A DNA stretch of 64,000 nucleotides from an uncultured bacterium (lineage in GTDB: Bacteria > Patescibacteriota > Patescibacteriia > Patescibacteriales > UBA12465), in NCBI GenBank assembly GCA_942492765.1, contig OW818634.1, positions 89,159 to 153,158 on the forward strand, read 5' to 3'. Of this stretch, positions 18,663 to 33,530 are shown one piece after another. A program made the position numbers and the translations under genes. How positions within the stretch are numbered: the stretch's first letter is position 1; the number at the start of each line of letters is the position of its first letter. A model generated the notes under the pieces. That model made no database searches, had not been told where the DNA came from, and saw nothing but the letters and a program-made list of their open reading frames with translations.

Positions 18663-20909
18663 ATGTATAATAAGATTTCTTCAATTATCTTGAACTCAGC
18701 TAAGGCCGTAGGCTTGAGCGATGTTTTTGTCACTCAGCCCGACGCCCTGAAGGAGAGTCAGGCTGGAAAGATATTCATCTTGGCGGAAATAGGCGGCAAA
18801 AAGACCGAGGGGCAGAAGGTCTTTGACTTCCTAGTAATGGCTTTGAGCGATAATTATTATAATGACGAGAAGATACTTTTCAAAGATAAGATTCCTGGTC
18901 TGAAGATCGAGAATATTTTTGAAGCGGCCGTAACCAAGACTAATCGCGATTTGGCGGATTTTCTGGTAAGCGAGAGAATCAGGCTTAATCCGACGGCCAC
19001 TAATCTGACTATCGGAGTGGTTTATGAGAATAAGATTCATTTTGCCAATTTTGGCCATAACCGCGCCCTCTTAGTTTTTCGTCGCGGCGACGAATACGAG
19101 ATAATCAATGTCGAAGCTAATGCCGCCGAAGCGCTGGCTGATGCTAGTGACGCTGATGCTGCTCCGTCGCGCGCGCCCAAGCTTTTCTCCTCAGTTATCA
19201 GCGGCGAGATTCCCTCCTCCTCTTATTTCGTGCTTAGCAATGAAGCCTTGCCAGAGTATCTTTCCAATAAGGAGATGACTAGCATCGTCACCAAGCTTCC
19301 TCCCCTAGCTGCAGCGGAGCAGATCAAGAATGTCTTATCCAAAGTCAATACTTATATTCCTTTCCTGGGAATAATCATTAAGAATACTGTCGGTTTAGCA
19401 GCGCCGGACGCTAAGGATGATCTCGAAGAATCCTCGGCCCATAGCTCTATATCTTCGCTTAATTATACCGAACAGAAGACCGAACGCATGCTAGCTCCAG
19501 CCGGGCTGATCAATCTTTCTGGCATGATTAAGGGGGCGAAGAGCGCTGTTAAGGGCTGGCAGTCTAAATCAGCTCGGCCGCAGAAGAAATATATCCATCA
19601 GGAGGAAGACAGAGCCGTCCAGCCGCCCTTGGATTTAGGCTCTATTAAGAGCATGAATATGGCCGGGGCTAATTCTTTCTCGCGGCCCGATAAGATATTC
19701 TTCAAGAAACGGACCGGAGCGATCGGCTCGGGATTCAAGAATATCGGATCAGCTTTTGCCGGGATATTCAGCGGCCGCATCTGGTCAGCCATAGGCGCTT
19801 ATCTCAAGTCTAGATTAATGTCGCTTAATAAGAAGAATCGCCTGCTCTTTGTCGGTCTAGGATTGGCAGTCGTAGTTTTAGCAGTCAGCATCTTGATTAC
19901 TAATTTTAATCATAAGAAGGCCGCCGTCGAAGCTAATTTTAACGGCTTGATTACGGCTATCAATGATAAGGAAAATGAGATTGCCGCTCACTTATTGTAT
20001 GACGATGAGGCAGGTGCGGCTGTAATCTTGACCGAGGCGCAGGGGCTATTAGCTTCGTTACCCCAGGATTCTGATATCCATAAAGCCGCTTATCAGGAGC
20101 TGACCGCTAAATTAGCGACTGACGCCGAAAGGCTCCAGAAGATAGTCAGAATAGCTTCTGCCGACAAGGTTAATGACCTCATCGGGCTAGGCATCAATAA
20201 TTTAGCTTTTGCCGCTGGGAAGATTTACGCCGCCGGCGGAGCGACGGTTTATGCTTTGACTCCAGCTAGCGCTTCTTCTAGCAGAATAGATATCAAGAAC
20301 GCCACTAGTTTAGCTAACCCGCATAAGGATTTTCATAAGGACATTATCCATTATTGGGATACTGGCAATATCGCCGACCTCGCCTTTAAGACCAAGGCCA
20401 GCAGCTTGATCAGCACGACTAAATTAGACGCGGCTTCCAGCCTGATTAGCTTTAAGATCTATAATGCCAAGCTATATTCGATTGCCAAGGATAAGAATCA
20501 GATATATTCATACGTCGATAATAAAGGCTTCAGCGCTAAGACAGATTGGCTCAAGGATAGCGCTGATTTGAGCCAGGCGGTTGATTTAGGGATAGATGGC
20601 GATATTTATGTCCTAAAAGTTGACGGCTCTATCCTGAAATTCACTAAGGGCAAGACTGTCGAATATGGCGCTACGGCTATATCTCCAATCATGACTAGCG
20701 CTAATAAGCTTATCGTGGGCACGAATTATCTCTATGTTTTCGAGGCCGCCTCTAAGCGTTTAGCCGTGCTATCCAAGAAAACCGGATCTTTGGTCAATCA
20801 GTATATTATCGATTCTCTCGGGTCGGCTAAAGACGTGACAGTAGATGAGTCCGGCAAGGCCGCCTATTTCTTGGATGGCGATGCGGTTTATAAGGTGGGG
20901 TTGAAATAA
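18663..20909 (+). CDS. Hypothetical membrane protein: degenerate PP2C-like N-domain, central TM helix, beta-propeller-like C-domain
   Basis: 748 aa. LTIGVVYENKIHFANFGHNRALLVFRRGDEYEI resembles the PP2C core, but GDSR is replaced by GHNR. TM helix LLFVGLGLAVVVLAVSILI. The C-terminal half is repeat/beta-rich. Confidence 0.4.
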   Translation: MYNKISSIILNSAKAVGLSDVFVTQPDALKESQAGKIFILAEIGGKKTEGQKVFDFLVMALSDNYYNDEKILFKDKIPGLKIENIFEAAVTKTNRDLADFLVSERIRLNPTATNLTIGVVYENKIHFANFGHNRALLVFRRGDEYEIINVEANAAEALADASDADAAPSRAPKLFSSVISGEIPSSSYFVLSNEALPEYLSNKEMTSIVTKLPPLAAAEQIKNVLSKVNTYIPFLGIIIKNTVGLAAPDAKDDLEESSAHSSISSLNYTEQKTERMLAPAGLINLSGMIKGAKSAVKGWQSKSARPQKKYIHQEEDRAVQPPLDLGSIKSMNMAGANSFSRPDKIFFKKRTGAIGSGFKNIGSAFAGIFSGRIWSAIGAYLKSRLMSLNKKNRLLFVGLGLAVVVLAVSILITNFNHKKAAVEANFNGLITAINDKENEIAAHLLYDDEAGAAVILTEAQGLLASLPQDSDIHKAAYQELTAKLATDAERLQKIVRIASADKVNDLIGLGINNLAFAAGKIYAAGGATVYALTPASASSSRIDIKNATSLANPHKDFHKDIIHYWDTGNIADLAFKTKASSLISTTKLDAASSLISFKIYNAKLYSIAKDKNQIYSYVDNKGFSAKTDWLKDSADLSQAVDLGIDGDIYVLKVDGSILKFTKGKTVEYGATAISPIMTSANKLIVGTNYLYVFEAASKRLAVLSKKTGSLVNQYIIDSLGSAKDVTVDESGKAAYFLDGDAVYKVGLK

Positions 20910-20936
20910 TAATTTCTCTAAAATTATAAAATAAAT

Positions 20937-20964
20937 AAAAACAGCTCATCTAGGCTGTTTTTTA
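20937..20964 (+). terminator. Intrinsic terminator of the 18663-20909 gene
   Basis: acagc (20941-20945) pairs with gctgt (20954-20958), extended by A-U pairs, and is followed by a T-run. Confidence 0.6.
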
Positions 20965-20978
20965 ATAATATTTACCTA

Positions 20979-21007
20979 TTGACAAATATATTATTATATG
21001 CTAATAT
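20979..21007 (+). promoter_or_regulatory. Near-consensus sigma70-type promoter driving candidate ncRNA A
   Basis: TTGACA (20979-20984), a 17-nt spacer, then TAATAT (21002-21007). The block 20976-21010 is 32/35 identical to 25978-26012. Confidence 0.6.
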
Positions 21008-21013
21008 ATATTC

Positions 21014-21272
21014 ATAGTTGTTTTAAAAATAAACTAAAACAAAAAACATGGTTTATCGTTTTGCACTATTCGTGTGCCCGTAGGTAGCACACGGCTCCAC
21101 TACATATGAAACACCGGCCCCGATCATCTCAAATAAAATAAATATCGGGTAAGTTTTGTTCCCGTTTTACACTAAAATGGCGAGACTAAAGTTGGCGGTA
21201 ACTTACTGCTACCGGGCAGAATAAACCGGCTAAGATATACTAAGGGATTCCTATTACAGGAATCCTTTTTTA
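21014..21272 (+). ncRNA. Candidate structured ncRNA A (~260 nt), family not identified
   Basis: Bounded by the promoter above and by the hairpin ggattcc (21245-21251) / ggaatcc (21259-21265) plus T6. All frames contain stops. Local helices: 21071-21077/21087-21093, 21119-21124/21144-21149 and 21162-21169/21173-21180. It is convergent with rplL. Confidence 0.5.
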
Positions 21273-21283
21273 TTTTTCCGTAC

Positions 21284-21312
21284 AAAAAAACCAACCGGTT
21301 AGGTTGGTTTTT
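21284..21312 (-). terminator. Intrinsic terminator of rplJ-rplL
   Basis: ccaacc (21291-21296) pairs with ggttgg (21302-21307). It is flanked by A7 and T5, so a U-run follows the hairpin on the minus strand. Confidence 0.7.
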
Positions 21313-21346
21313 TCACAGGAAAAATCCTGAGTGAGAAAGTAGTAGA

Positions 21347-21739
21347 TTACTTTAATGTGACCTTAGCGCCGGCTTCTTCTAATTTCTTCTTCATAGCTTC
21401 GGCTTCAGCCTTCTTAACGCCTTCCTTCAAGACTTTCGGGGCGCCATCGACTAAGTCTTTAGCTTCCTTCAATCCCATTTCGGTCAATTCACGGACGGCC
21501 TTGATGACATTGATCTTGCTGGCACCGCCATCAGTGATCTCGACATCGAAAGCATCCTTCTCTTCAACCGCAGCCGCGGCAGCAGCCGGAGCCATCATCA
21601 TGGCTGGGGCAGAAGCGCTAACGCCGAACTTCTCTTCTAAGATCTTAACGAGTTCCGCTAAGTCTAGAACGCTCATCTTCTCGATTTCGCCGACTAATTT
21701 TTCGAATTTCGCCGGAACGATTACATTTTTCTCTTCCAT
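21347..21739 (-). CDS. rplL: 50S ribosomal protein L7/L12
   Basis: 130 aa. Ala-rich hinge ([18 protein letters not shown]) and C-terminal domain [34 protein letters not shown]. Confidence 0.95.
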
Positions 21740-21769
21740 ACGTTTAAAATTAAATATTATTTAAATTAA

Positions 21770-22297
21770 TTATTTTTTTTCTTCGATCGCTTTCAAGACA
21801 TTGACCAGGTTGCGCAGATTGCCGCCGAGAGCATTGACGAAGCCGGAAATCGGCGCGTTAATGGATCCGACTAATCTGGCATACAGCTCGTTCTTGCTCG
21901 GCAATTCAGACAGGGCTTCGACTTCTTTCTTGGAAAGAAGCTTGCCATCTAAGATGCCTCCTAAGAAGAAGATGCGGCCTTCCTTATCCTTATCCTTGCG
22001 GAAAGTGCCTAGGACTTTGGCTGGAGCGACCTCATCCTCGTAAGAGAAGATAGCCGCAACCTTGCCGTCGAAATCCCTGACATTGATATCCATCTTGTTC
22101 TCTTTCAAGGCCATGTTCATCAAGGTCTTCTTGGCGACGTAATATTCGCTGCCAGCTTCCCTTAATTTATCGCGTAAGTTTTCGTTATCCTTAACGCCGA
22201 AAGCGTTAAAGCCCGCGAACACCATAGACTTGGACTTCTTGATCTTTTCGTTCAGATTGCGAAAGATCTCTCCTTTTTGAATTTTGTTCTTTGGCAT
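21770..22297 (-). CDS. rplJ: 50S ribosomal protein L10
   Basis: 175 aa, immediately upstream of rplL. Typical L10 N-domain (SMVFAGFNAFGVKDNENLRDKLREAGSEYYVAKKTL). Confidence 0.93.
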   Translation of the reverse strand: MPKNKIQKGEIFRNLNEKIKKSKSMVFAGFNAFGVKDNENLRDKLREAGSEYYVAKKTLMNMALKENKMDINVRDFDGKVAAIFSYEDEVAPAKVLGTFRKDKDKEGRIFFLGGILDGKLLSKKEVEALSELPSKNELYARLVGSINAPISGFVNALGGNLRNLVNVLKAIEEKK

Positions 22298-22482
22298 ATA
22301 TATCTATAATAATAAAAAATCCGTGGCTAGCCATGGACATTCAAGAAAATACCTAAGATTAGAGTATTTGTACCTCGGCGAGACTTATAATCGATTCGGC
22401 TTATAGGCTTCTTCGAAAAGCTGGCTGTCTATGGCGTTATTTAATTACTTTGATATATTAGCAGATTCTGTTTATTTGTCAA
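22298..22482 (-). promoter_or_regulatory. rplJ promoter plus ~150-nt leader with a terminator-like attenuator (candidate L10-leader-type autoregulatory element)
   Basis: The minus strand reads TTGACA (22482-22477), a 16-nt spacer, then TAATAT (22460-22455). The leader contains a hairpin at 22321-22336 followed on the minus strand by U6 (22320-22314), 16 nt before the ATG. No Shine-Dalgarno sequence is visible. Confidence 0.5.
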
Positions 22483-22500
22483 GAGATTTTAGAGCTAAGA

Positions 22501-22531
22501 AAAAAGACCCGAATTGATTCCGGGCCTTTTT
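22501..22531 (-). terminator. Intrinsic terminator of the 22544-23164 gene
   Basis: Minus strand: ggcccgga..ttcgggtc hairpin with one bulge, followed by T5. Confidence 0.6.
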
Positions 22532-22543
22532 AAAGGGCAAGGG

Positions 22544-23164
22544 TTAATGGCTTAATCTATAGAGCCAATTGCTTTCGGATTCCTGATACTCCATCCTGAT
22601 AGTTAAGCCGCCATCAAGCCTGATGGTTTCTGTTTGCAGGCTGCATAATTGCGGCAGGCCATGTTTCTTGCGCAGGTAGTCTCCATAAGGAATAAATCCA
22701 TCCCGTCTAGTTTTTACCAGAGTTTCCCGGATCGGCGAGAAATTACAGAGATTATACTGCTTTTTATCTTCGACGCCGAAGGTTTTAAATATCAGTTCTG
22801 CTTTATTGATGGCGGAATCGCAGAATGATTCCCCGTTTTTTAAATAATAGCTGATCTCAAAGGGTTTTGTGAACTCGTTGTCTATTACCTTGATGACACT
22901 TTCGTCCAGATTTTCTAAGCGGGCAATTATTTCTTGACGCTTAGTAGTCGGACCAATACTGACTCGGAAAAGGCTGATTTTTATAAGCGCTTGGCGATTA
23001 TCCTGCCTTTCGTTGAAACAGGAGATGATTCTCAGATCTTCAATGGTATGGAAATGCTTATCCTTTTTGTCATGCCAGTCGTCTACTGGGATGTTTGTTT
23101 TTAAGCTGCTGACATGGCTGATACCCCAGACCATGGTCGCCTTGTCGTAAATCTGTGTTTTCAT
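22544..23164 (-). CDS. Hypothetical soluble protein (orphan; no recognisable domain)
   Basis: 206-aa ORF with an RBS-like aaagaaagggtaaaaac upstream of the ATG and its own flanking terminators. No TM helix or signal peptide. Confidence 0.5.
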   Translation of the reverse strand: MKTQIYDKATMVWGISHVSSLKTNIPVDDWHDKKDKHFHTIEDLRIISCFNERQDNRQALIKISLFRVSIGPTTKRQEIIARLENLDESVIKVIDNEFTKPFEISYYLKNGESFCDSAINKAELIFKTFGVEDKKQYNLCNFSPIRETLVKTRRDGFIPYGDYLRKKHGLPQLCSLQTETIRLDGGLTIRMEYQESESNWLYRLSH

Positions 23165-23298
23165 GTTTTTACCCTTTCTTTAGGTTATTAGACTTATGTT
23201 ATTTTAAGCGTCCGGTATAGGAGACCGGATCTTGTTGTAAATGAACTGATAATAAAGTTCTATTTAAATTACCAAATAATGGAGTTTTTGTCCAGATA

Positions 23299-23330
23299 CA
23301 AAAAACCGCCCTAGATAGAGCGGTTTTTTA
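23299..23330 (-). terminator. Intrinsic terminator of the SIMPL-domain gene
   Basis: Minus strand: CCGCUCU-AUCU-AGGGCGG (7 bp) followed by U6. Confidence 0.7.
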
Positions 23331-23351
23331 TTTGGTTGATTTTTTAGATTG

Positions 23352-24092
23352 TTATCTTACTTCATAAACCAGGGTAGCCTCTACCTTGATTTCGTTTTGG
23401 CCGGATTGGATAGAAGGAGAAGATATTCTCTCGTCCGCCGCTCCGGTTGCGAACTCCATCTTAGCATTGCTATAGCTGATCGGGCTGATAACAGGGACTG
23501 AGCTCTCATAGACGCTCTTCACTTCGCCCAATTTCATGCCAGATTGTTCGGCAATCATCATCGCCTTCTCTTTGGCTTTTTCAATCGCTAATTCTCTAGC
23601 CTGATTCTTCAGCTCGTATTCATCATCGATGGTGAAGCTGATATTGCCGATCTGGTTAGCGCCTTTCTCGGTCGTCTTGGCGATAACGTCTCCAATCTTG
23701 CTCAAATCGCGGATCTTCAGGGAGACATTCTGGCTGACTTCATAGCCGATCAATTCTTGTCCCCTAGCTTCAGTCCAGTTATAGACTGGGTTCAAGGAAT
23801 AACCGCTAGTCTTGATATCTTTTTCCTCAATATTTAGAGCCTTGACCGCTTCGATGATCCCGTTCATCTTAGTCGTGCTCTCGGTGGTCGCTTCAGCCGC
23901 CGTCTTCTTAACGCCGGTCTTTAAACCGATCTCTAGATTAGCGATGTCAGCCTTGGCATAGACGGTGCCCGTGCCGGTGACTGAGAAGCGATCCTGGTTA
24001 TTAGCCTTAAGAGCCATAACCAGGGCGACGACGACCATAGCGGTAACCGCTAAGATACCGAGGGTCGTCAGGAAAACGTAGGTTTTTTTCAT
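23352..24092 (-). CDS. SIMPL (DUF541) domain-containing secreted/anchored protein
   Basis: 246 aa. N-terminal TM/signal. Pattern typical of SIMPL family members (TGTGTVYAKADIANLEIGL ... YEVSQNVSLKIRDLSKIGDVI ... EIKVEATLVYEV). Confidence 0.8.
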   Translation of the reverse strand: MKKTYVFLTTLGILAVTAMVVVALVMALKANNQDRFSVTGTGTVYAKADIANLEIGLKTGVKKTAAEATTESTTKMNGIIEAVKALNIEEKDIKTSGYSLNPVYNWTEARGQELIGYEVSQNVSLKIRDLSKIGDVIAKTTEKGANQIGNISFTIDDEYELKNQARELAIEKAKEKAMMIAEQSGMKLGEVKSVYESSVPVISPISYSNAKMEFATGAADERISSPSIQSGQNEIKVEATLVYEVR

Positions 24093-24132
24093 ACGATTTT
24101 ATTAATTATTATATTATTTAAATCTATCTTTA

Positions 24133-25365
24133 TTATAGCTCATTGCTGATTTTTGGGCTAGATATCGTTTTTGGAGATATTTTTTTGAGCTTTCGGCCGC
24201 GGTTGGCGAAACGATGCGCCTCTTCCCTGAGTTTCAATAAGGTCGGCTTGATGTTTTCTGCCAAACCGCGCAGAGGTTTCTTGGCTTCGGCCGTAAAGAC
24301 GAGCTTATCGCCACCAAGCTTGGAGATACCGACGAGCGGGATATTCAGATTATTAGCCCTGAAGACCCGAGAGAGGAAGCTTATCTGCGGCGTTCCGCCA
24401 TCGATCATGATGAGATCAGGCGCGCGCCATTCGCCGTGCTTGAAACGGCGCAAGAGCATCTCGCTAAGCGCGCGTTCGTCGTCTCCGGCCGGAGCTTCTT
24501 TTATCTTGAATAGGCGGTATTCGTCTTTAGCCGCTTCTCCATTTTCAAAAACGACCATGGATCCATAAGTTTCCTTGCCGGCATGATGCGAGATGTCATA
24601 GCCTTCGAGACGGTCGATCTTATGTTCCCCTAAATCATCTTCGCGAACCAGTAAGGCGACATCTTGCATATGTTTCAGAGCCCTTATCTTGTCGGGATTT
24701 TCTTTTTTCAGTTTCGCGATCAGGCGCTTTTTTTCGCCGGAAAGCAAGAGGATGATATTATTGATATTTTTCTGATAGTCTTTTTTAGAAATAACGCCGA
24801 CGCAGGCGCCCGGGCATAGCCCGATCTGGTAGTCGAAGCAAGCTTTGCCGTCAGGATTTCCGGCTGTACCCATTGGAGCGCAGGTGCCATAAGGAAAGAC
24901 GCGGCGTATCAGGCGCAGCGCACTCTGAATCAGATAGAAAGATTGGTAGGGGCCGAAAATCTTAGCTTGGGACTTCTTATTCAAAGACGAGGCGGAAAAT
25001 TTTTTCAAATCAGTGCCGCGGACGATGAGCGGCTTAGGAAAATCGGCCTTGGGGATGACAACATAAATGAAAGAACGGTCATCCTTGTCTTTTACATTAT
25101 ATTTCGGCCAATGTTTTTTGATTTCCTTGGCCTCCAAGATTATCGCCTCTAAGAGGGTTTCGGTCTCTTCGTATTTAATATTCGCCGCCAGCGCGACCAT
25201 CTCGGCGATACGCTGGTCAATATTCTTCTGGAAATATTGGCTGAGACGATTGCGCAAGCTAGTCGCCCGGCCGATATATAAGATTTTTCCAGCCTTATCA
25301 AGCCAGAAATAGATTCCGGGTTTTTTAGGGATATTTTTCAGTTTGTCTTTAAGATTTGAACTCAT
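24133..25365 (-). CDS. uvrC: Excinuclease ABC subunit C, short form (GIY-YIG plus RNase-H-like endonuclease domains only)
   Basis: 410 aa. GIY-YIG N-terminus (PGIYFWLDKAGKILYIGRATSLRNRLSQYF). Cys-rich segment CFDYQIGLCPGACVG. C-terminal endonuclease region LEGYDISHHAGKETYGSMVVFENGEAAKDEYRLFKI. It ends without an HhH region. Confidence 0.85.
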   Translation of the reverse strand: MSSNLKDKLKNIPKKPGIYFWLDKAGKILYIGRATSLRNRLSQYFQKNIDQRIAEMVALAANIKYEETETLLEAIILEAKEIKKHWPKYNVKDKDDRSFIYVVIPKADFPKPLIVRGTDLKKFSASSLNKKSQAKIFGPYQSFYLIQSALRLIRRVFPYGTCAPMGTAGNPDGKACFDYQIGLCPGACVGVISKKDYQKNINNIILLLSGEKKRLIAKLKKENPDKIRALKHMQDVALLVREDDLGEHKIDRLEGYDISHHAGKETYGSMVVFENGEAAKDEYRLFKIKEAPAGDDERALSEMLLRRFKHGEWRAPDLIMIDGGTPQISFLSRVFRANNLNIPLVGISKLGGDKLVFTAEAKKPLRGLAENIKPTLLKLREEAHRFANRGRKLKKISPKTISSPKISNEL

Positions 25366-25654
25366 AAAGATATCCAGTTAGGCCAATCCGCCCCTTCTTT
25401 ATAATTATACCCTCTTTTTTGAGCATAGCTATCTTTTTGGCAGTTCCGCTGGCGAAGCCGCCGACTGATCCGTCAGAACGGACGACGCGATGACAAGGCA
25501 CTTGCGGCGCGTAGGGGTTCTTGTTCAAGGCATTACCGACAGCGCGGCTCGCGCGCGGATGGCGCAAAGCGCCAGCGATAGCTCTATAAGTAGAAACCTT
25601 GCCGCGAGGTATCAGGGAGGTTTTTTGATAAACTTTTTCTTTGAAACTAGTCAT
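25349..25654 (-). CDS. ogt: Methylated-DNA--protein-cysteine methyltransferase, catalytic (C-terminal) domain only
   Basis: 101 aa. Active-site PCHRVV motif and preceding IPRGKVSTYRAIA helix-turn-helix region. The 3' end overlaps the uvrC start by 17 nt. Confidence 0.85.
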   Translation of the reverse strand: MTSFKEKVYQKTSLIPRGKVSTYRAIAGALRHPRASRAVGNALNKNPYAPQVPCHRVVRSDGSVGGFASGTAKKIAMLKKEGIIIKKGRIGLTGYLYEFKS

Positions 25655-25658
25655 AGTC

Positions 25659-25687
25659 TTGACGGATTTAATTTTTTAGCCTAGTGT
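25659..25687 (+). promoter_or_regulatory. Possible promoter for candidate ncRNA C (weaker match)
   Basis: TTGACG (25659-25664), a 17-nt spacer, then TAGTGT (25682-25687). It is divergent from ogt, whose ATG lies 5 nt away. Confidence 0.35.
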
Positions 25688-25693
25688 TTAGGT

Positions 25694-25950
25694 ATCGATA
25701 AGTTGTTGGGTTCTTTTAATCAATTCCGAGACCGGGTAAAACCGGAAAAGACCGAAGAAGATTATTTACGGATATTTAAGCCGAGGAAAACTGTTTAATT
25801 GAGGTGCGCCTTAATTAGCACTCCGCTGACATATCAACCCATGATAGGGATAAAAATCCGATACGGTCACTAGACCGAGAATTTTCTAAGTGAACTCCTG
25901 CGCCTTGAGCCCAGGACTGATAAACTTAGAATCTTCTCGGTTCTTTTTTT
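25694..25950 (+). ncRNA. Candidate structured ncRNA C (~255 nt), family not identified
   Basis: No ORF. It ends in an extended hairpin 25875-25890/25925-40 (14 of 16 positions paired) that encloses an inner stem (uccug...cagga), followed by T-rich 25941-25950. Internal helices: 25797-25804/25809-25816 (8 bp, UGCG loop), 25732-25735/25742-25745, and long-range 25707-25712/25836-25841. Confidence 0.45.
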
Positions 25951-25980
25951 ATTTAATTTTAGTATAAGTTTACTTATCTA

Positions 25981-26009
25981 TTGACAAATATTTTATTATG
26001 TGATAATAT
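25981..26009 (+). promoter_or_regulatory. Near-consensus sigma70-type promoter driving candidate ncRNA B
   Basis: TTGACA (25981-25986), a 17-nt spacer, then TAATAT (26004-26009). The spacer is almost identical to the promoter at 20979-21007. Confidence 0.6.
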
Positions 26010-26015
26010 ATAACC

Positions 26016-26330
26016 ATAAACATAAAATATATTTTTATGTATAAAATGTTTTGCTGGCGGCGCCCTCGGGGTATCGCAGTAATCTAAGTTCTTCTCAGTT
26101 CATAAATCCTCTCATTCAAAACAGCTAGAAAATCTAGCTATGGTAAAAATCAAGGGACGTAAATTCCTACAGCAAACTATTGTGTAATTAAGAACTATAA
26201 TATTAGTTGTAAATTCAATAGCACGCTAGCATCGGAACAAGTCCAGAAAAATTACAAAATTTAGAGAGGTATCAATCACATCGGGCGGGGCCCAAATTTG
26301 GACCGGTAGTCACAAGCTACCGGTTTTTTT
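26016..26330 (+). ncRNA. Candidate structured ncRNA B (~315 nt), family not identified
   Basis: Bounded by the promoter above and by the hairpin accggtag (26302-26309) / ctaccggt (26317-26324) plus T7. Stops occur in all frames. Helices: 26020-26027/26033-26040, 26123-26129/26133-26139, 26177-26182/26216-26221 enclosing 26193-26197/26204-26208, and long-range cctctc (26108-26113) / gagagg (26264-26269). Confidence 0.5.
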
Positions 26331-27189
26331 ATTTGCTTATCAACCCGATCATCAGGCTGCAGGCGATGGCTAGTCCGGCGCCGAAGTATTGGATCTTATT
26401 GACCTTCTCTTTGTTAAAGACTACGCCGAGGATTAGAGCGATGACCACGAAGCTCTCGGTGATGGCGACAGTGATGGATAGTTCCTTTTCGGCGACCGCC
26501 AAGACATAGAAGACCCAAGCTGCCGTATCTACGATAACCATGGCCAGAATGAGTTTCCAATTGATCCGGCAAACCTTAAAGAACGGAGATAGTGTTTGAC
26601 GGCTGATGATATACCCGAAACTGAAGAGGCCGCAGGTCAGCCACGGCAACCATAAGGCCATAATCGGACTAATTTCTTTAGCTTGAGTAGCGGTCAAGAA
26701 GTTTACTAGAGCGACCAAAGCCGATGACAATAGGGCTAATAAAGACCCCTTCTCTAAGAAATCTTTCTTGTTAATCTTCGTAAAATCGACGGATACCAAG
26801 ATAATGCCGATGAATAAGATAATGATCAGAATCACCTGCGTTAGATTCAGTCTTTCCGCGAAGAAGATTATACCCAGCAGGATGGTCAAAGGCAACTCTA
26901 CTGATAGGATTATTTCTACCACCGAGAGCTTGCCGACATGCAGAGCTTTCATATGGACGAAACCGCTGGCAAAGCCAGCTATTCCTAAAATAACCAAATT
27001 GATTATCTGTCTCGGAGCGAGTGATGATATGTCATTAAAGACAAAGGGCAGCAAGGCAAAAGAGCTGAAAAGCGTTATCCAGAACAAGGTTCCGACTGTG
27101 CCAATTTTTCTGACGGTCCTTTGAATCAGAAAATCTCCGATTCCCCAGCCGAGCATAGCCCCGAAAGCGAATAAGATTGGTAGAGTCAT
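26329..27189 (-). CDS. EamA/DMT-superfamily transporter
   Basis: 286 aa with ~10 TM helices in two EamA-like halves. Confidence 0.8.
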   Translation of the reverse strand: MTLPILFAFGAMLGWGIGDFLIQRTVRKIGTVGTLFWITLFSSFALLPFVFNDISSLAPRQIINLVILGIAGFASGFVHMKALHVGKLSVVEIILSVELPLTILLGIIFFAERLNLTQVILIIILFIGIILVSVDFTKINKKDFLEKGSLLALLSSALVALVNFLTATQAKEISPIMALWLPWLTCGLFSFGYIISRQTLSPFFKVCRINWKLILAMVIVDTAAWVFYVLAVAEKELSITVAITESFVVIALILGVVFNKEKVNKIQYFGAGLAIACSLMIGLISK

Positions 27190-27192
27190 AGA

Positions 27193-29715
27193 TTATTTTA
27201 AATATTCTTTCAGATATTTCCCGGTAATGCTGGCTGGCTCGCGCGCGATGTCCTCGGGCGCGCCGCTAGCGACTAAGCGTCCGCCCTCTTCTCCGCCTTC
27301 CGGCCCGAGGTCGATGATATAATCCATGGCTTTGAGCATGTGCATATTATGCTCAATCACTAGGACTGAGTTCCCTTTCTCTACTAGCTTGTTCAAGACC
27401 GAGAGCAGCATATCAATATCATGGTAATGCAGCCCGGTCGTCGGTTCATCTAATAAATAAAGAGTGCGTTTTCCTAAAGTATGCGTCAGCTCTTTGGCGA
27501 TCTTGATGCGCTGGGCTTCGCCGCCCGATAAGGTTGTCGCGCTCTGGCCGATCTTCAGATAGCCGAGGCCGACAGATTGCAGAACTTTTAACTTATCGGT
27601 GATAAAATAATTGCCCTCGAAATGTTCAATCGCTTCATCAATGGTTGAATCCAGAACTTCGGCGATATTCTTGCCTTTATATTTAACTTGCAGAGTTTCA
27701 CGGTTGAAACGCTTGCCGCGACAGACTTCGCATTCAACCAGCACTGGCGGCAGGAAATGCATCTCAATCAGGTTAGCTCCGGCGCCTTCGCAGGCCTCAC
27801 AGCGGCCGCCTGGACGATTAAAGGAGAAGCGGCCGATAGAATAACCGCGTTCGCGGGATTCAGGAAGTGAGGCAAAGAAATCGCGAATCGGGGTGAAGAT
27901 ACCGGTATAGGTCGCGGGGTTAGAGCGCGGCGTGCGGCCGATCGGCGATTGGTCGATGACGACTACTTTATTGATATATTCCGCTCCTTTGATTTCTTTG
28001 ACGCGTTCTAGCTTGGCATTGCCTGGGCGATTCTTGATATGGGTGATATTCCTATAGATGACTTCATATAATAGCGAAGACTTTCCGCCTCCGGAAACGC
28101 CGCTGATGCCGACGAGACGGCCGAGCGGAATATCGACATTCAGATTCTTCAGATTATTCGCATAAGCGCCGCGGATGCGCAGGGTGCCGTGATTCTGCTC
28201 TCGACGCTTATTCGGAATCGCTATTTCTTTTTGGCCGTAAAGGTATTGCAACGTCAGGGATTTTTTTACAGCCTCTTTATTCTTCTCTTCTTTCAATAGA
28301 TCTTTAGTATTGCCGATAGCCACGACTTCTCCGCCATGAACGCCAGCGAGCGGACCGAGGTCGACTAGATAATCAGATTCCAGAATAGTCCTTTCGTCGT
28401 GTTCGACGATGATGACAGTATTATGCTTGTCGCGCAGAGCCTTGAGCGTTTCTATCAAGCGGTCAGTATCGCGTTCATGCAACCCGATAGTCGGTTCATC
28501 AAGGACATATAGAGTCCGGGACAGATGCGAACCGATTTGCGAAGACAGGCGGATGCGCTGAGCCTCGCCGCCTGATAAGGTATGCGCTTCGCGCTCCAGG
28601 GACAGATAATTCAATCCGACTTTCAATAAGAACTCTAAACGGCTGATGATCTGGATAACGACGTTCTCGGCGATAATGCGCTGGCGTTTCGTCATCTTTT
28701 CGTAATAAGAATTGAAGAAGGCTAGGGTCTTTTTTAAAGGAAGCTCGCAAACGGCGGCGATGTTCTTGTTATTAATCCTGACTGACAAGGCTTCTGGGCG
28801 CAGGCGCTGGCCATGGCATTCCGGGCATGGCTCCTCGCTGAAGAAATCCACGCGGCCTAAGCCGGTGCATTCCGGGCAAGCGCCATGAGGAGAATTGAAG
28901 GAGAATAAGCGCGGCTCAACTTCCGGGAAAGAGAAATTATCATTCGGGCAGGTCCAATTTGCGGATAATAAGAATTCTTGATCCTTGAATTTGGCAATCA
29001 AAAGCCCTTTGCTATATTCGAGAGAATTCTCGACGGCTTCGAAGAGGCGTGTCTGGTCATTTAACATCACCTTGTCGATGACGATGTCGATATCATGCTT
29101 TTGTTTAGGAGCCAGCTTAACCTGTTCGCGCAGCGAATGGAATTTTCCATCAATGCGGGATTCGCCATAGCCGAGCGACAGATAATTATATAGGAGCTGA
29201 TAATATTCGCCTTTGCGATCGCGGACAACCGGAGATAGGATAGTCACGTATTCCTCCTTTAAGTCAGTGCCGCGATTAATGATAATATCTACCATTTCTT
29301 CAACGGTCAGCTTCTCAATTTTCGTGCCGCAGACCGGACAGAAGACTTCACCGACTCGGGCGTAAAGCACGCGCAAGTAATCATAGATATCAGTCAACGT
29401 CCCGACGGTGGAACGCGGATTATGAGAGAGAGCTTTCTGGTCGATAGATATGGAAGGCGCTAGACCGATCATCTCGTCAACGTCAGCCGGCTTCTTCTGA
29501 CCTAGGAATTGACGCATATAGGGCGATAAAGACTCGACGTACTGTCTCTGCCCTTCCGCAAAGATCGTATCAAAAGCCAGCGACGATTTGCCACTGCCAG
29601 AGACGCCGGTAATGACCGTCAGCTTATTGTGCGGTATTTCCAGGTTGATATTCTTAAGATTATGCGTCCGTGCGCCGCGGATAATCAGTTTTTCAGTTTT
29701 ATCTTTTTCAGGCAT
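27193..29715 (-). CDS. uvrA: Excinuclease ABC subunit A, lacking the insertion domain
   Basis: 840 aa. Two ABC modules ([50 protein letters not shown]) and zinc modules. The CPECTGLG and [10 protein letters not shown] halves are only 13 residues apart (codons at 28816-28878). Confidence 0.95.
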
Positions 29716-29760
29716 ATTTGGCTTATTTTAGTGGTTTTATGTGATATTTATTCGTATATC

Positions 29761-29789
29761 TTGACATTTTATGATATTTGTAGTATAAT
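29761..29789 (+). promoter_or_regulatory. Consensus sigma70-type promoter upstream of the small ORF at 29837
   Basis: TTGACA (29761-29766), a 17-nt spacer, then TATAAT (29784-29789). Confidence 0.55.
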
Positions 29790-29836
29790 AATGGCAGTAA
29801 ATTGACATTTGAATATTAACTTAAATCCTTACGAAC

Positions 29837-30136
29837 ATGATAGAAGTAGTAACTAAAAAGATGTCTAAATCTGTTAGGCTTTATCGATCCTCTTTTGTAT
29901 ACGCAGTAATTGCTGCTGTATCATTTGGTGTAAATATCTCGTTAATTTGTTTTTCTAAGGTTGTTACGGACATCCGTACGTATTCCATAATTTGTTTTTT
30001 TTCGGTTTTGTTTATGTATTCTTTACTATTATTTATACTAACAATAGTTGAATTCTATCTTCAAAAGAAGCAAGAAATGAAAGAGGGAGATAAGAAAGAG
30101 CTATTAGAAAAGTTAATAAAAATATTAGAATCATAA
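29837..30136 (+). CDS. Hypothetical small 2-TM membrane protein with a charged C-terminal helix, in an AT-rich islet
   Basis: A 99-codon open frame in very AT-rich DNA, where stops should be frequent. Two hydrophobic helices (FVYAVIAAVSFGVNISLICF; IICFFSVLFMYSLLLFILTIV) and the tail QKKQEMKEGDKKELLEKLIKILES. No clear Shine-Dalgarno sequence. Confidence 0.4.
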   Translation: MIEVVTKKMSKSVRLYRSSFVYAVIAAVSFGVNISLICFSKVVTDIRTYSIICFFSVLFMYSLLLFILTIVEFYLQKKQEMKEGDKKELLEKLIKILES

Positions 30137-30188
30137 CGAGATTAACGTTCTTTAAAGCTATTATCTTAACCGATAGTAGCTTTTTTAT

Positions 30189-30764
30189 TTACGCAAACGG
30201 ATTCGGATCAGAAAAAGTTATACGATTAGTCCGATGATTTATGATATCAAAAGGCACGCCATATTTCTTATTATATAAAGTATCAACTGAGCAGAATAAG
30301 GCTTGCGCATAATTAAACCCTAATTTTCCACTGACAGATCTCACTTCCTTCTCCGACTTCCCCTCTACCTCAACATAAGGCTCAAGATAGGGCCACTCAT
30401 CAATAGTTACTTCTACATTATCTAAAATCCAGAGTTCGCGCCGGCTTTCCTGATAGGCTTTTGACTTGGCGCCGATCGCTTCTAGGAATTTAACGCCTTC
30501 AGCAAAATTATCAATCTTCAAACAGATTTCTTTTTGATCTTCTATCTTATCGCCATTAACGATTTTTAAGCTCATGGTCGTCTTGTCGCCTTCATCGCGT
30601 ACTCTGAGCCAGCCGCCAGGTATTTCGTGTCCGATTGGCAATTCAAAGACAATCCGTTTCATCAGGAAATCCGGCTTGATCAGAGTCGCTCCGACCTTAT
30701 TGAGGCGAGCTCTAATATCCTCTCTATTAATATCAATGAATGTGGCTTCGTATTCAGTGTTCAT
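30189..30764 (-). CDS. CYTH-domain protein (CyaB/class-IV adenylate cyclase / triphosphate-tunnel-like)
   Basis: 191 aa. N-terminal strand EYEATF (ExExK-type position, with T in place of K). Also WLRVRDEGD and RRELWILDNVEVTIDEWPYLEPYVEVEG. Confidence 0.7.
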   Translation of the reverse strand: MNTEYEATFIDINREDIRARLNKVGATLIKPDFLMKRIVFELPIGHEIPGGWLRVRDEGDKTTMSLKIVNGDKIEDQKEICLKIDNFAEGVKFLEAIGAKSKAYQESRRELWILDNVEVTIDEWPYLEPYVEVEGKSEKEVRSVSGKLGFNYAQALFCSVDTLYNKKYGVPFDIINHRTNRITFSDPNPFA

Positions 30765-30770
30765 ATTTTA

Positions 30771-31205
30771 TTATTTATATATTTGGCCGATCTTATATCT
30801 TTCAATCATTAAGGCCGTGCCCTCAAATAGCGGCTCGGGCAATTTATCTAGGTCAAACCATTCCCAGCGCACCCATTTTTCTGGTTCTGCTATTTTAAGA
30901 TCCCCTTCAACGCTATTAGCGATGAAGCCGACGTTGATATAATGCTTGCCTTTGTCCATTGCGCCCATCTCGTCAGCTAAAGATACAAGTTCTAAATTAG
31001 AAACATTTAGACCAGTCTCTTCTTTAGCCTCCCTTATGGCTGCCTCAGTCATAGTTTCCCCGAATTCTAGATGTCCGCCAGGAAAACTCCATGTTCCTTG
31101 TCCGTGCAGAGAGAGGCGCAGACCCAAGAGAACTCTTCCATTTTTATCTTTTATCATTACGCCGACACCCACTTTCGGTCGCAGACTATCTTTATCCGTA
31201 TTCAT
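30771..31205 (-). CDS. Nudix hydrolase (MutT-like)
   Basis: 144 aa with a canonical Nudix box GGHLEFGETMTEAAIREAKEETGL. Confidence 0.85.
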   Translation of the reverse strand: MNTDKDSLRPKVGVGVMIKDKNGRVLLGLRLSLHGQGTWSFPGGHLEFGETMTEAAIREAKEETGLNVSNLELVSLADEMGAMDKGKHYINVGFIANSVEGDLKIAEPEKWVRWEWFDLDKLPEPLFEGTALMIERYKIGQIYK

Positions 31206-31209
31206 ATCT

Positions 31210-31680
31210 TTATAATTTATGTTCGTAGAAATTAGTTATTCTCCCTTCGGTATATAAGCCGCTCTCAATGAATTTCCAGCCAGCCTTTTCGTAATAGCCC
31301 TTCAAATCGGTCATGAGATAGACTTTCTTGAAGCCAGCTTTCTTCGCTGTCGCCAGCAAAGCTGCTTGTAGGGCTTGGCCGACACCTCGACCGCGATATT
31401 TTTCTAAGACTAATAAGCAGCTCAGCCAAGGGCCTAAGTCCTGGCGATAGGGGTGATCGGCATTCCATAGGGATACAGTTCCAGCCGGCTGACCGTCGCA
31501 GAAAGCAATCAGGGTCTGCGGACATTTCTTTGTTATAGAATGTTCGGTCCGATAAATTATTTCTTTCAAGGTCCGGCCGTGGCGCTTAGCCCATTGCTTC
31601 CACATCCATTTAGAAACTAGCGGGATATATGCTGGGCAAAGTTTAAGATTTTTTACTGTAATTTTAGCTATTTTTTTCAT
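31210..31680 (-). CDS. GNAT-family N-acetyltransferase
   Basis: 156 aa. Acetyl-CoA-binding motif A region LLVLEKYRGRGVGQALQAALL. Confidence 0.8.
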   Translation of the reverse strand: MKKIAKITVKNLKLCPAYIPLVSKWMWKQWAKRHGRTLKEIIYRTEHSITKKCPQTLIAFCDGQPAGTVSLWNADHPYRQDLGPWLSCLLVLEKYRGRGVGQALQAALLATAKKAGFKKVYLMTDLKGYYEKAGWKFIESGLYTEGRITNFYEHKL

Positions 31681-31694
31681 AATGCTAGATTTTT

Positions 31695-33530
31695 TTATTT
31701 CTCAGCAGCATCAAGGAAGTCCTCAATTTTCTTATCGATATTTATCGGCGTGATCCCATGCTTCTTATTATATTCCAATTGCTTGACACGGCGACGTTCG
31801 GCTTCATTAATCGCTTTCTTCATAGAAACAGTCTTCTTGTCGGCATAGAGGATGATCTTGCCTTTGACGTTGCGCGCCGCGCGCCCCATGATCTGCATGA
31901 GCGAGGTTTCGCTGCGCAAGAAACCTTCTCGATCAGCATCTAGAATCGCTACGAGAGTTACTTCGGGCAGATCCAAACCTTCGCGCAACAGATTGACGCC
32001 GATAAGAACATCAAACTTCCCTTCTCGAAAACTCTTCAATATTTCAGTGCGTTCAAAAGTCTTGATATCGGAATGAAGATAATTTGATCTGAAGCCTTGG
32101 CCGTTCAAATAAGTATTAAGATCCTCAGCTTGTTTTTTAGTCAGAGTGTTGATAATAGCGCGTTCGCCCAGAGCCGCGATCTTTTTAACTTCGGCCATAA
32201 CGTCATTGATCTGGCTGTAATTCTCTTTCTTATTGAAAACCGGCCGGACCTCGATTTCCGGATCGACTAATCCGGTCGGACGGATGACTTGTTCAGCGAT
32301 TTGTTCGGAATGCTTCAATTCGAATTCGCCCGGAGTCGCGGTCGTAAATATCATCTGCCCGACGCGCGCTTCGAATTCGTTGAATTTCAAGGGGCGGTTA
32401 TCAAGAGCTGAGGGCAGGCGCCAACCGTATTGGATCAGGGTTTTCTTGCGGGCCTGATCGCCGTTATACATGCCTCTGATCTGAGGCACGGCAATATGCG
32501 ATTCATCTATGATTGTTAGAAAATCCGGCTTCCCGTCTTTCCAGGGGAAATAGGCTAATAGGGCGTCCGGCGCTTCGCCAGCCAGCTTGCCGGTCAGATG
32601 ACGCGAATAATTTTCAATGCCATGGCAATAACCTAAGGTTCGAAGCATTTCCATGTCATATTTAGTCCGCCTTTCTAAGCGTTCGGCTTCTAGGAGAAAA
32701 CCTTCTTTTTTAAAATAAGCTAAGCGGTCTTTCAGCTCTTCTTGGATATTTTTTATTGCGGCTTCAATCTGCGGTGTCGTGGAAACGAAGTGCTTAGGCG
32801 GAAAAACGACAATCTCTTCTAGATCGCCAATGATATTCTTCGTCGTATTGTCGATGATGGCTAAATCGCTGATAGCTTGGCCGTTAAGTTCTAGGCGATA
32901 AATGACATTCTCTGATTTCGGTCGGATCTCAAAGATATCACCGCGAACCCGGAACTGGCCGCGATCGATTTCCCCGCTCGTCCTTTCAAACTGGATTTTT
33001 ATTAATTGCTTGATGAGGTCGGCTCTGACCATCGGCTTCCCCTTTTCTAAGACTAACTTCGCTTCCAGATAGCTGGACGGCACGCCAAGATTATAAATGC
33101 AAGAGACTGAGGCGACGATGATGACGTCGCGGCGGGAAACGAGCGATGACGTCGCGGCATGGCGCAGACGGTCTATTTCCTGATTGATCATCGCCTCCTT
33201 ATCAATATAGGTATCAGTTATCGGCAGATAGGCTTCAGGTTGATAATAATCATAATAAGAAACGAAGTAATGGACGGCGTTTTCCGGGAAAAAATTCTTA
33301 TATTCGCGATAAAGCTGGGCAGCCAACGCTTTATTCGGAGCAATAACTAGCACGGGCTTATTGAATTCCTTGATAACGTTAGCGACGGTGAAGGTTTTGC
33401 CCGATCCGGTAACACCTAAAAGCGTTTGATAATTAAAACCCTTCTTCAGGCCCGCCTGGAGTTTTTTGATAGCCTCCGGCTGGTCGCCGGCGGGCTGAAA
33501 ATTAGATTTTAATTTGAATATCTTTTCCAT
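31695..33530 (-). CDS. uvrB: Excinuclease ABC subunit B, lacking the C-terminal UVR domain
   Basis: 611 aa. Helicase motifs (GVTGSGKTFT, DESH, MGRAARN). It ends 14 residues after the conserved HGITPINI segment. Confidence 0.95.
   Translation of the reverse strand: MEKIFKLKSNFQPAGDQPEAIKKLQAGLKKGFNYQTLLGVTGSGKTFTVANVIKEFNKPVLVIAPNKALAAQLYREYKNFFPENAVHYFVSYYDYYQPEAYLPITDTYIDKEAMINQEIDRLRHAATSSLVSRRDVIIVASVSCIYNLGVPSSYLEAKLVLEKGKPMVRADLIKQLIKIQFERTSGEIDRGQFRVRGDIFEIRPKSENVIYRLELNGQAISDLAIIDNTTKNIIGDLEEIVVFPPKHFVSTTPQIEAAIKNIQEELKDRLAYFKKEGFLLEAERLERRTKYDMEMLRTLGYCHGIENYSRHLTGKLAGEAPDALLAYFPWKDGKPDFLTIIDESHIAVPQIRGMYNGDQARKKTLIQYGWRLPSALDNRPLKFNEFEARVGQMIFTTATPGEFELKHSEQIAEQVIRPTGLVDPEIEVRPVFNKKENYSQINDVMAEVKKIAALGERAIINTLTKKQAEDLNTYLNGQGFRSNYLHSDIKTFERTEILKSFREGKFDVLIGVNLLREGLDLPEVTLVAILDADREGFLRSETSLMQIMGRAARNVKGKIILYADKKTVSMKKAINEAERRRVKQLEYNKKHGITPINIDKKIEDFLDAAEK

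Follow-up and report, generated by a model that had tools for sequence, protein, structure and literature searches.

A candidate narrow family of structured non-coding RNAs in one clade of Patescibacteria

The locus

Does the promoter-to-terminator segment beside eamA, here called unit B, encode an RNA that matters as a molecule, or is it better read as a device acting on its neighbours, a mobile segment or a chance arrangement of signals? The question arises in the window (the whole 64-kb stretch of DNA analysed here), where unit B lies in the neighbourhood of uvrA, eamA, ogt (101 aa) and uvrC. The eamA gene (26329-27189, minus strand) encodes a DMT-family transporter (PF00892, E = 3e-29) and is convergent with unit B. 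The best EamA matches come from Patescibacteria metagenome-assembled genomes, part of them labelled Falkowbacteria. The 101-aa ogt product consists of the PF01035 domain alone, and the gene has a 17-nt overlap with uvrC (25349-25365). The original prediction described unit B as a self-contained non-coding unit of the plus strand, running from promoter to terminator. This description is borne out by homologues, which keep the promoter, the terminator, the conserved blocks and compensatory pairs.

Promoter, terminator and coding capacity

The candidate promoter is of the sigma-70 type (25981-26009, plus strand). It consists of TTGACA at 25981-25986, a 17-nt spacer and TAATAT at 26004-26009, and can be read directly in the sequence as predicted originally. 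The TG dinucleotide at 26001-26002 makes it an extended -10 promoter, with a score of 10/12 with TG in the promoter scan. The region 25971-26018 is 85% identical over 48 nt, spacer included, to the promoter region 20969-21016 of unit A, another candidate unit of the window. With the start placed from the position of the -10 box, the predicted transcript covers positions 26016-26330 of the plus strand, about 315 nt.

The candidate intrinsic terminator (26302-26330, plus strand) has a stem of 8-11 bp and a loop of 5-7 nt followed by U7. The stem arms ACCGGTAG (26302-26309) and CTACCGGT (26317-26324) enclose a 7-nt loop, and the T7 run occupies positions 26324-26330; in the terminator scan the stem grows to 11 pairs (26300-26326). 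This is the top-ranked terminator-like site within 20000-32000. The T-run overlaps the eamA stop codon (26329-26331), and in the minus orientation the hairpin is followed by CCAAAUUUGGG and not by a U-run; both points had been made in the original prediction and are directly visible in the sequence.

Unit B had also been described as closed by stop codons in all frames, and its longest open reading frame encodes only 25 aa, with a TTG start. No open reading frame is conserved across the homologues of unit B. The only peptide common to them is encoded by the invariant block on the opposite strand, with a start inside the terminator loop, and was rejected as a candidate small protein. Since the homologues differ by indels of 20, 23 and 51 nt, non-triplet lengths among them, and share no conserved reading frame, a protein product is excluded.

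Homologues and conserved sequence

Homologues were gathered by synteny, from the gaps adjoining eamA and ogt in relatives. Unit B was found in four lineages: the window, L007 (the same as L008), L031 and L033. The L033 copy comprises the 5' 130 nt of the unit, up to the contig end. Searching with Ogt added no other close relatives to the L007 lineage. Because promoter, RNA body and terminator are kept together in other genomes, unit B stands above chance.

The promoter is TTGACA-17-TAATAT in both L007 and L031, despite differing spacers, and TTGACA-17-TAGTAT in L033. The predicted RNA is about 315 nt long in the window and 385-435 nt in the relatives. Between the window and L007/L031 unit B is 53-58% identical, compared with 72% for eamA DNA. 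A base-by-base alignment (MAFFT) of the window with L007/L031 failed in the centre of the unit. Conservation is concentrated in blocks. The 24-nt block ACAUCGGGCGGGGCCCAAAUUUGG (26278-26301, plus strand) has the same sequence in the window, L007 and L031, and occurs once in the window, where no chance match is expected. Also invariant are AAGUUCUU and AUCGGAA, and AAAUCCUCUC, GAGRGG and GUCCA are mostly invariant. The region of the 24-nt block contains a 10-nt DNA palindrome, CCAAATTTGG, inside GGCCCAAATTTGGACC (26289-26304).

Gene order, presence and absence

The gene order differs between relatives, and wherever units B and C (the latter is a candidate RNA unit directly upstream of B) occur they point against the protein-coding genes. 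Read in the direction of the latter, the order is eamA-B-C-ogt-uvrC in the window and L033, eamA-C-ogt-uvrC in L001, L032 and L014-19, eamA-C-uvrC in L009-12, eamA-ogt-uvrC in L013, eamA-uvrC in L002 and L006, and eamA-ogt-B-uvrC in L007/L008 and L031. The ogt gene is absent from L002, L006 and L009-12 and follows eamA directly in L007, L031 and L013.

Conservation in relatives, proposed originally as a check of the unit, is thus found in part: unit B is present in L007/L008, L031 and, as a partial copy, L033, and is missing from the nearest relatives L032, L001 and L002. In L001 and L032 the absence is a clean 380-bp junction, with position 25954 joined directly to 26335. The edges of this polymorphism are marked by two copies of an 11-nt direct repeat, TTTTTTTATTT. 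The left copy (25944-25954) is the tail of the unit C terminator, and the right copy is at 26324-26334. The window contains the repeat twice, and L001 and L032 contain it once.

Over unit C, ogt and uvrC, L032 is 88% and L001 82% identical to the window; at about 81%, L033 is the furthest removed of the four. As this most distant member carries unit B at the same site as the window, the unit is probably ancestral to the window clade. Its later loss may have come about in two ways: the segment between the two terminator tails was deleted, or an allele carrying B was exchanged for one lacking it. Such an exchange is plausible because a tract of about 1.2 kb in the window (20505-21736) is near-identical to L002 (at least 97% identity) and its flanks are diverged (65-86%). 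The tract suggests recent recombination between lineages. Judged by its distribution, unit B is accessory and dispensable, and any function that it has would be non-essential, since the nearest relatives do without RNA B.

In L007 and L031 unit B is instead found between ogt and uvrC and diverges from uvrC, whose start it adjoins. A comparison of the ogt 3' and uvrC 5' regions of the L007 lineage gave similarity too weak to say whether B or ogt has moved.

Predicted structure

The minimum free energy (MFE) of the plus strand of unit B is -77.7 kcal/mol (z = -4.6, 100 dinucleotide shuffles). The minus strand folds equally well (z = -4.5), and therefore the folding energy alone cannot choose the strand. 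The hairpins at 26020-26040, 26123-26139 and 26177-26221 and the long-range CCUCUC/GAGAGG pairing, all of them named in the original prediction, recur in the MFE fold.

Starting from the 5' end, the plus-strand fold begins with H1, an AU-rich 8-bp hairpin (26020-26040) 4 nt from the predicted start. The H1 stem is 1 bp longer in L033. In L007 and L031 its place is taken by a hairpin of about 90 nt, with three compensatory pairs between these two genomes. The second hairpin, H2 (26051-26082), is GC-rich with an apical CC-NCG-GG. It is identical in L033 and is still a hairpin in L007/L031 despite a different sequence.

The core of the fold is formed by nested long-range helices. The 5' strand of P1, CUAAGUU (26084-26090), lies within the conserved block AAGUUCUU and pairs with AAAUUUGG at 26295-26301. 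P1 is found in the unconstrained MFE fold of the window and of L031, and forcing it in L007 costs 1.4 kcal/mol. The 5' strand of P2, CCUCUC (26108-26113), lies within the conserved block AAAUCCUCUC and pairs with GAGAGG at 26264-26269; P2 too is found in the unconstrained optimal folds of the window and L031. Inside P2, the GGAC strand of P3 (26155-26158) pairs with GUCC (26241-26244), and the UUCC strand of P4 (26164-26167) with GGAA (26234-26237). The 3' strands of P4 and P3 are both contained in the conserved block CAUCGGAACAAGUCCA (26230-26245), and the distance from CAUCGGAACAAGUCCA to AAAUUUGG is a constant 64 nt in the window and L007. The invariant 24-nt block combines a small GGGC-GGG-GCCC hairpin (26283-26293) with the 3' strand of P1.

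The elements common to the window and L007/L031 are H2, P1, P2, P3 (GGAY/GUCC), P4 (UUCY/GGAA), the GGGC-GGG-GCCC hairpin and the terminator. The 5' hairpin and the centre of the RNA vary by insertions of whole hairpins. The 7-bp hairpin at 26123-26139 belongs to such a variable region and is replaced by a larger sub-domain in L007/L031, and the long apical hairpin (26177-26221) is short in L007 and contains a 51-nt insertion in L031.

The pattern of substitutions agrees with this fold. Among the 97 pairs of the L007/L031 consensus, six differ at both bases and 11 at one, every change leaving a standard pair, and one cell is unpaired. When the 3' partners are shifted by 1-3 columns, pairing in this consensus falls from 99.5% to 34-51%. 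P4 contains a compensatory change from G-C to A-U between L007 and L031, and the terminator stem is remade with other bases in L007/L031 (CCGGCAGU/ACUGCCGG vs. ACCGGUAG/CUACCGGU). In P2 the single change is one-sided (U-A to U.G in L007). P1, P2 and the small hairpin say little about pairing, as they are invariant. Covariation is suggestive rather than statistical, as it is based on three full sequences from two clades and the tested structure was derived from these same sequences.

The strand can be assigned from the G.U pairs. In the structure, 16 pairs are G.U in one sequence or more, P1 contributing two, and they would become A.C on the other strand. Hence the structure, and the P1 helix in particular, belongs to the plus strand, as do the promoter and the U-run.

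Comparison with known families

The original prediction called for a comparison of unit B with the known RNA families, and the comparison with Rfam and with tRNA and tmRNA models produced no match that would place it in one. At the gathering score no Rfam family was found in the whole 64-kb window. A permissive search of the region 25500-26500 (Rfam 15, 4227 families, E <= 10) returned three noise matches, outside unit B or at its edge, and the L007 and L031 loci had no match at E <= 5. ARAGORN found no tRNA or tmRNA genes in the 64-kb window.

These results were used to reject specific candidates. RNase P, tmRNA and SRP RNA were discarded since no Rfam covariance model matched and ARAGORN reported no genes, and 6S RNA since its covariance models matched neither the window nor L007 and L031. 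A riboswitch or T-box leader has no Rfam match here, and eamA, the gene that follows, is encoded on the other strand. RNAs derived from IS200/IS605 elements (omega RNA, HEARO) and group I and II introns likewise had no Rfam match. The genes beside unit B are eamA, ogt, uvrC and uvrA, with no TnpB, IscB or reverse-transcriptase gene among them. A repeat or MITE was rejected, as terminal inverted repeats are missing from unit B and neither the 64-kb window nor any fetched locus contains it twice.

Searches for more distant copies gave little. Comparison with phages and plasmids by blastn produced 26-28-nt chance matches or nothing. An exact 20-mer of the invariant block had no matches in JGI metagenome contigs and IMG/VR. 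A two-anchor pattern had 11 metagenome matches, about the number expected by chance, all of them in coding or unrelated DNA, and a pattern made from the 5' block had 69 viral matches, none of them with the 3' block. A full-text literature search found nothing relevant to RNA B.

Among known systems, unit B resembles the stand-alone genes of bacterial structured and small RNAs that form the orphan "Gene; sRNA" entries of Rfam. Like them, it has its own promoter, a 5' hairpin and a Rho-independent terminator but no open reading frame; its conservation is island-like and includes compensatory pairs, and its taxonomic range is narrow. It differs in that RNA B (about 315-435 nt) is larger than typical base-pairing sRNAs and that its host clade consists of uncultured Patescibacteria.

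The 6S and Ms1-type RNAs bind RNA polymerase, and 6S RNA has a long closing stem, a large central bubble and an apical stem. RNA B is similar in that its ends are joined by a closing helix, P1, and in looking like an abundant stand-alone RNA, and it has a large internal loop between P1 and P2 with a small hairpin on the 3' side. However, P1 is 7 bp, which is not a long closing stem, and the interior is multi-branched and not a rod. Cis-antisense RNAs of the excludon type and riboswitch-controlled antisense RNAs occur in Listeria and Clostridium. They share with unit B strong transcription (predicted in the case of B) against co-directional genes, with read-through giving sense/antisense pairs. 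Unlike them, B stops at a strong terminator at the stop codon of its neighbour and in its predicted extent overlaps no coding sequence; antisense action, moreover, needs no conserved fold such as that of B.

Possible function

The reading that we favour, by a little more than an even chance, is that unit B is a gene with its own transcription, whose product is a stable, structured non-coding RNA that acts in trans and belongs to a narrow, undescribed family in one Patescibacteria clade. From the near-consensus extended -10 promoter transcription would begin 4 nt ahead of the 5' hairpin, and it would stop at the strong intrinsic terminator. The core would be held by the nested long-range helices P1-P4, with variable hairpins tolerated as insertions, and the small GGGC-GGG-GCCC hairpin of the invariant 24-nt block would adjoin the terminator. 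A predicted 5' hairpin beside the start together with a strong 3' terminator is what is expected of a long-lived RNA, and RNAs that function as folded molecules typically keep a conserved core and tolerate inserted hairpins. From these features we infer that RNA B would act in trans as a folded RNA, most likely through a protein or other partner that binds its invariant loops. The conservation of the RNA structure argues that the RNA itself matters, and not merely transcription against the operon. Any effect of convergent transcription on the neighbouring repair cluster would then be a side-effect. As an RNA family, B is a candidate that would be new and narrow, but of a familiar general kind.

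A purely cis-acting role, which we consider unlikely, would make unit B an operon breaker or antisense module, that is, a strong promoter directed against the co-directional genes uvrA-eamA-(ogt)-uvrC. Through convergent transcription and by pairing with transcripts that read through, it would uncouple or tune the expression of ogt and uvrC, in line with the sense/antisense regulation proposed originally. Such a role is consistent with the observation that every copy of B is inside the cluster and points against it, in two arrangements; the same observation speaks against a purely trans-acting RNA, which needs no such site. However, homologues were found by synteny only, so that the apparent linkage of unit B to the cluster is biased. 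The -35 box of unit B in L007 and L031 is 13-23 nt from the uvrC start codon, so that in these genomes the 5' leader of uvrC, or a transcript reading through from ogt, is necessarily antisense to B. In genomes without B or C the distance between eamA and uvrC is 4-87 nt, which fits co-transcription, and the lack of a U-run after the terminator hairpin on the minus strand agrees with transcripts continuing in that direction. Nevertheless, interference needs no conserved RNA body, whereas B keeps the 24-nt block, the helices and the compensatory pairs. In the window, moreover, unit C separates B from ogt, and B overlaps no annotated gene. A regulated, riboswitch-like leader, whose terminator read-through would yield an RNA antisense to eamA-uvrA, is very improbable. 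P1 does close a large conserved domain, and its 3' strand (26295-26301) touches the terminator stem and shares a GG with it, which resembles the expression platforms of riboswitches; transcripts that pass the terminator would be antisense to eamA in the window and to ogt-eamA in L007/L031. However, no convincing anti-terminator pairing was found, the best being a 4-bp GGCC/GGCC, the terminator is strong (8-11 bp and U7), and no riboswitch or T-box model matches.

The presence and absence of the unit could also reflect a promoter-RNA-terminator cassette that is selfish or mobile, or what is left of a mobile element; it would insert at the T-tracts of terminators and have no host function. The clean 380-bp polymorphism bounded by the 11-nt direct repeat, the location of B on different sides of ogt in two clades, and the inclusion in the repeat of the complement of the eamA stop codon, as in a target-site duplication, could all be explained in this way. 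Unit A would be another such cassette, with a nearly identical promoter and its own presence and absence among relatives. We nevertheless regard mobility as distinctly doubtful. The repeat may equally be two terminator tails, and its left copy in L033 is without the ATTT part. Unit B has no terminal inverted repeats, is single-copy in the 64-kb window and the fetched loci, and has neither a transposase, integrase or reverse transcriptase nearby, nor an Rfam match to intron, HEARO or IS605-type RNAs, nor viral, phage or plasmid matches. The same-site copy in L033 fits ancestral presence followed by T-tract deletion or allele exchange better than insertion. A more speculative scheme, to which we attach a low probability, treats A, B and C together as protein-free promoter-RNA-terminator cassettes of a flexible "RNA gene pool", moved at T-tracts by recombination or an unknown insertion mechanism. 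In this scheme B and C would be interchangeable in the slot opposite the nucleotide-excision-repair genes and would set how far uvrA-eamA transcription reaches into ogt-uvrC. Finally, unit B could be functionless AT-rich intergenic DNA with promoter-like and terminator-like sites that arose by chance, the terminator in fact serving eamA. Promoter-like sites show no overall enrichment in the region (26 found vs. 21 expected), the nearest relatives manage without the segment, and both strands fold equally well. It is, however, hard to believe that chance sites would be kept: promoter, terminator and blocks persist in lineages whose eamA DNA is only 72% identical, the invariant 24-nt block and compensatory changes are present, and the hairpin on the eamA strand has no U-run.

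Little work seems to have been done on non-coding RNAs in Patescibacteria (the candidate phyla radiation). In very small genomes a 0.4-kb RNA gene with a strong predicted promoter is a notable investment. If RNA B is real, it adds a structured-RNA family with a well-defined core, and natural strains with and without unit B would permit repair-gene expression to be compared. Its restriction to four lineages and its dispensability limit the value of the unit.

Units C and A

Unit C (25659-25950, plus strand) is the candidate non-coding RNA directly upstream of unit B. Its promoter reads TTGACG-17-TAGTGT, and 5 nt separate the -35 box from the start codon of ogt. The body is about 290 nt long and ends in a long terminator hairpin (25874-25941) followed by T7. 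It contains no open reading frame and has no Rfam match. A profile built from eight homologues matches in L001, L009-12, L014-19 and L032-36, so that unit C is far more widespread than B. It is always back to back with (ogt-)uvrC. Units B and C are alike in strand, in the layout of promoter, body and terminator, and in where they lie with respect to the repair cluster; unit B of L007/L031 fills the place held elsewhere by unit C. However, they have no detectable homology: the unit C profile does not find B, and we rejected the possibility that the two are paralogues.

Unit A (20979-21270, plus strand) is a promoter-to-terminator unit between a gene of 748 aa and rplL. No open reading frame was found in it, nor an Rfam match, and permissive Rfam searches returned nothing but noise or matches resembling terminators. 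L002 has the unit; L013, L014 and L018 do not, and their gap measures only 68-83 nt. Another whole-gene indel among close relatives is the segment 22484-23280 with an open reading frame at 22544-23164 (206 aa, no Pfam match), which is missing from L002. The 99.6% identity of unit A to its L002 counterpart belongs to the near-identical 1.2-kb tract described above, and it was not taken as a sign of an ultra-conserved RNA. Within 20505-21736 only the 3' part of unit A (100-150 nt, 21165-21316) has diverged; it is 30-77% identical and contains indels.
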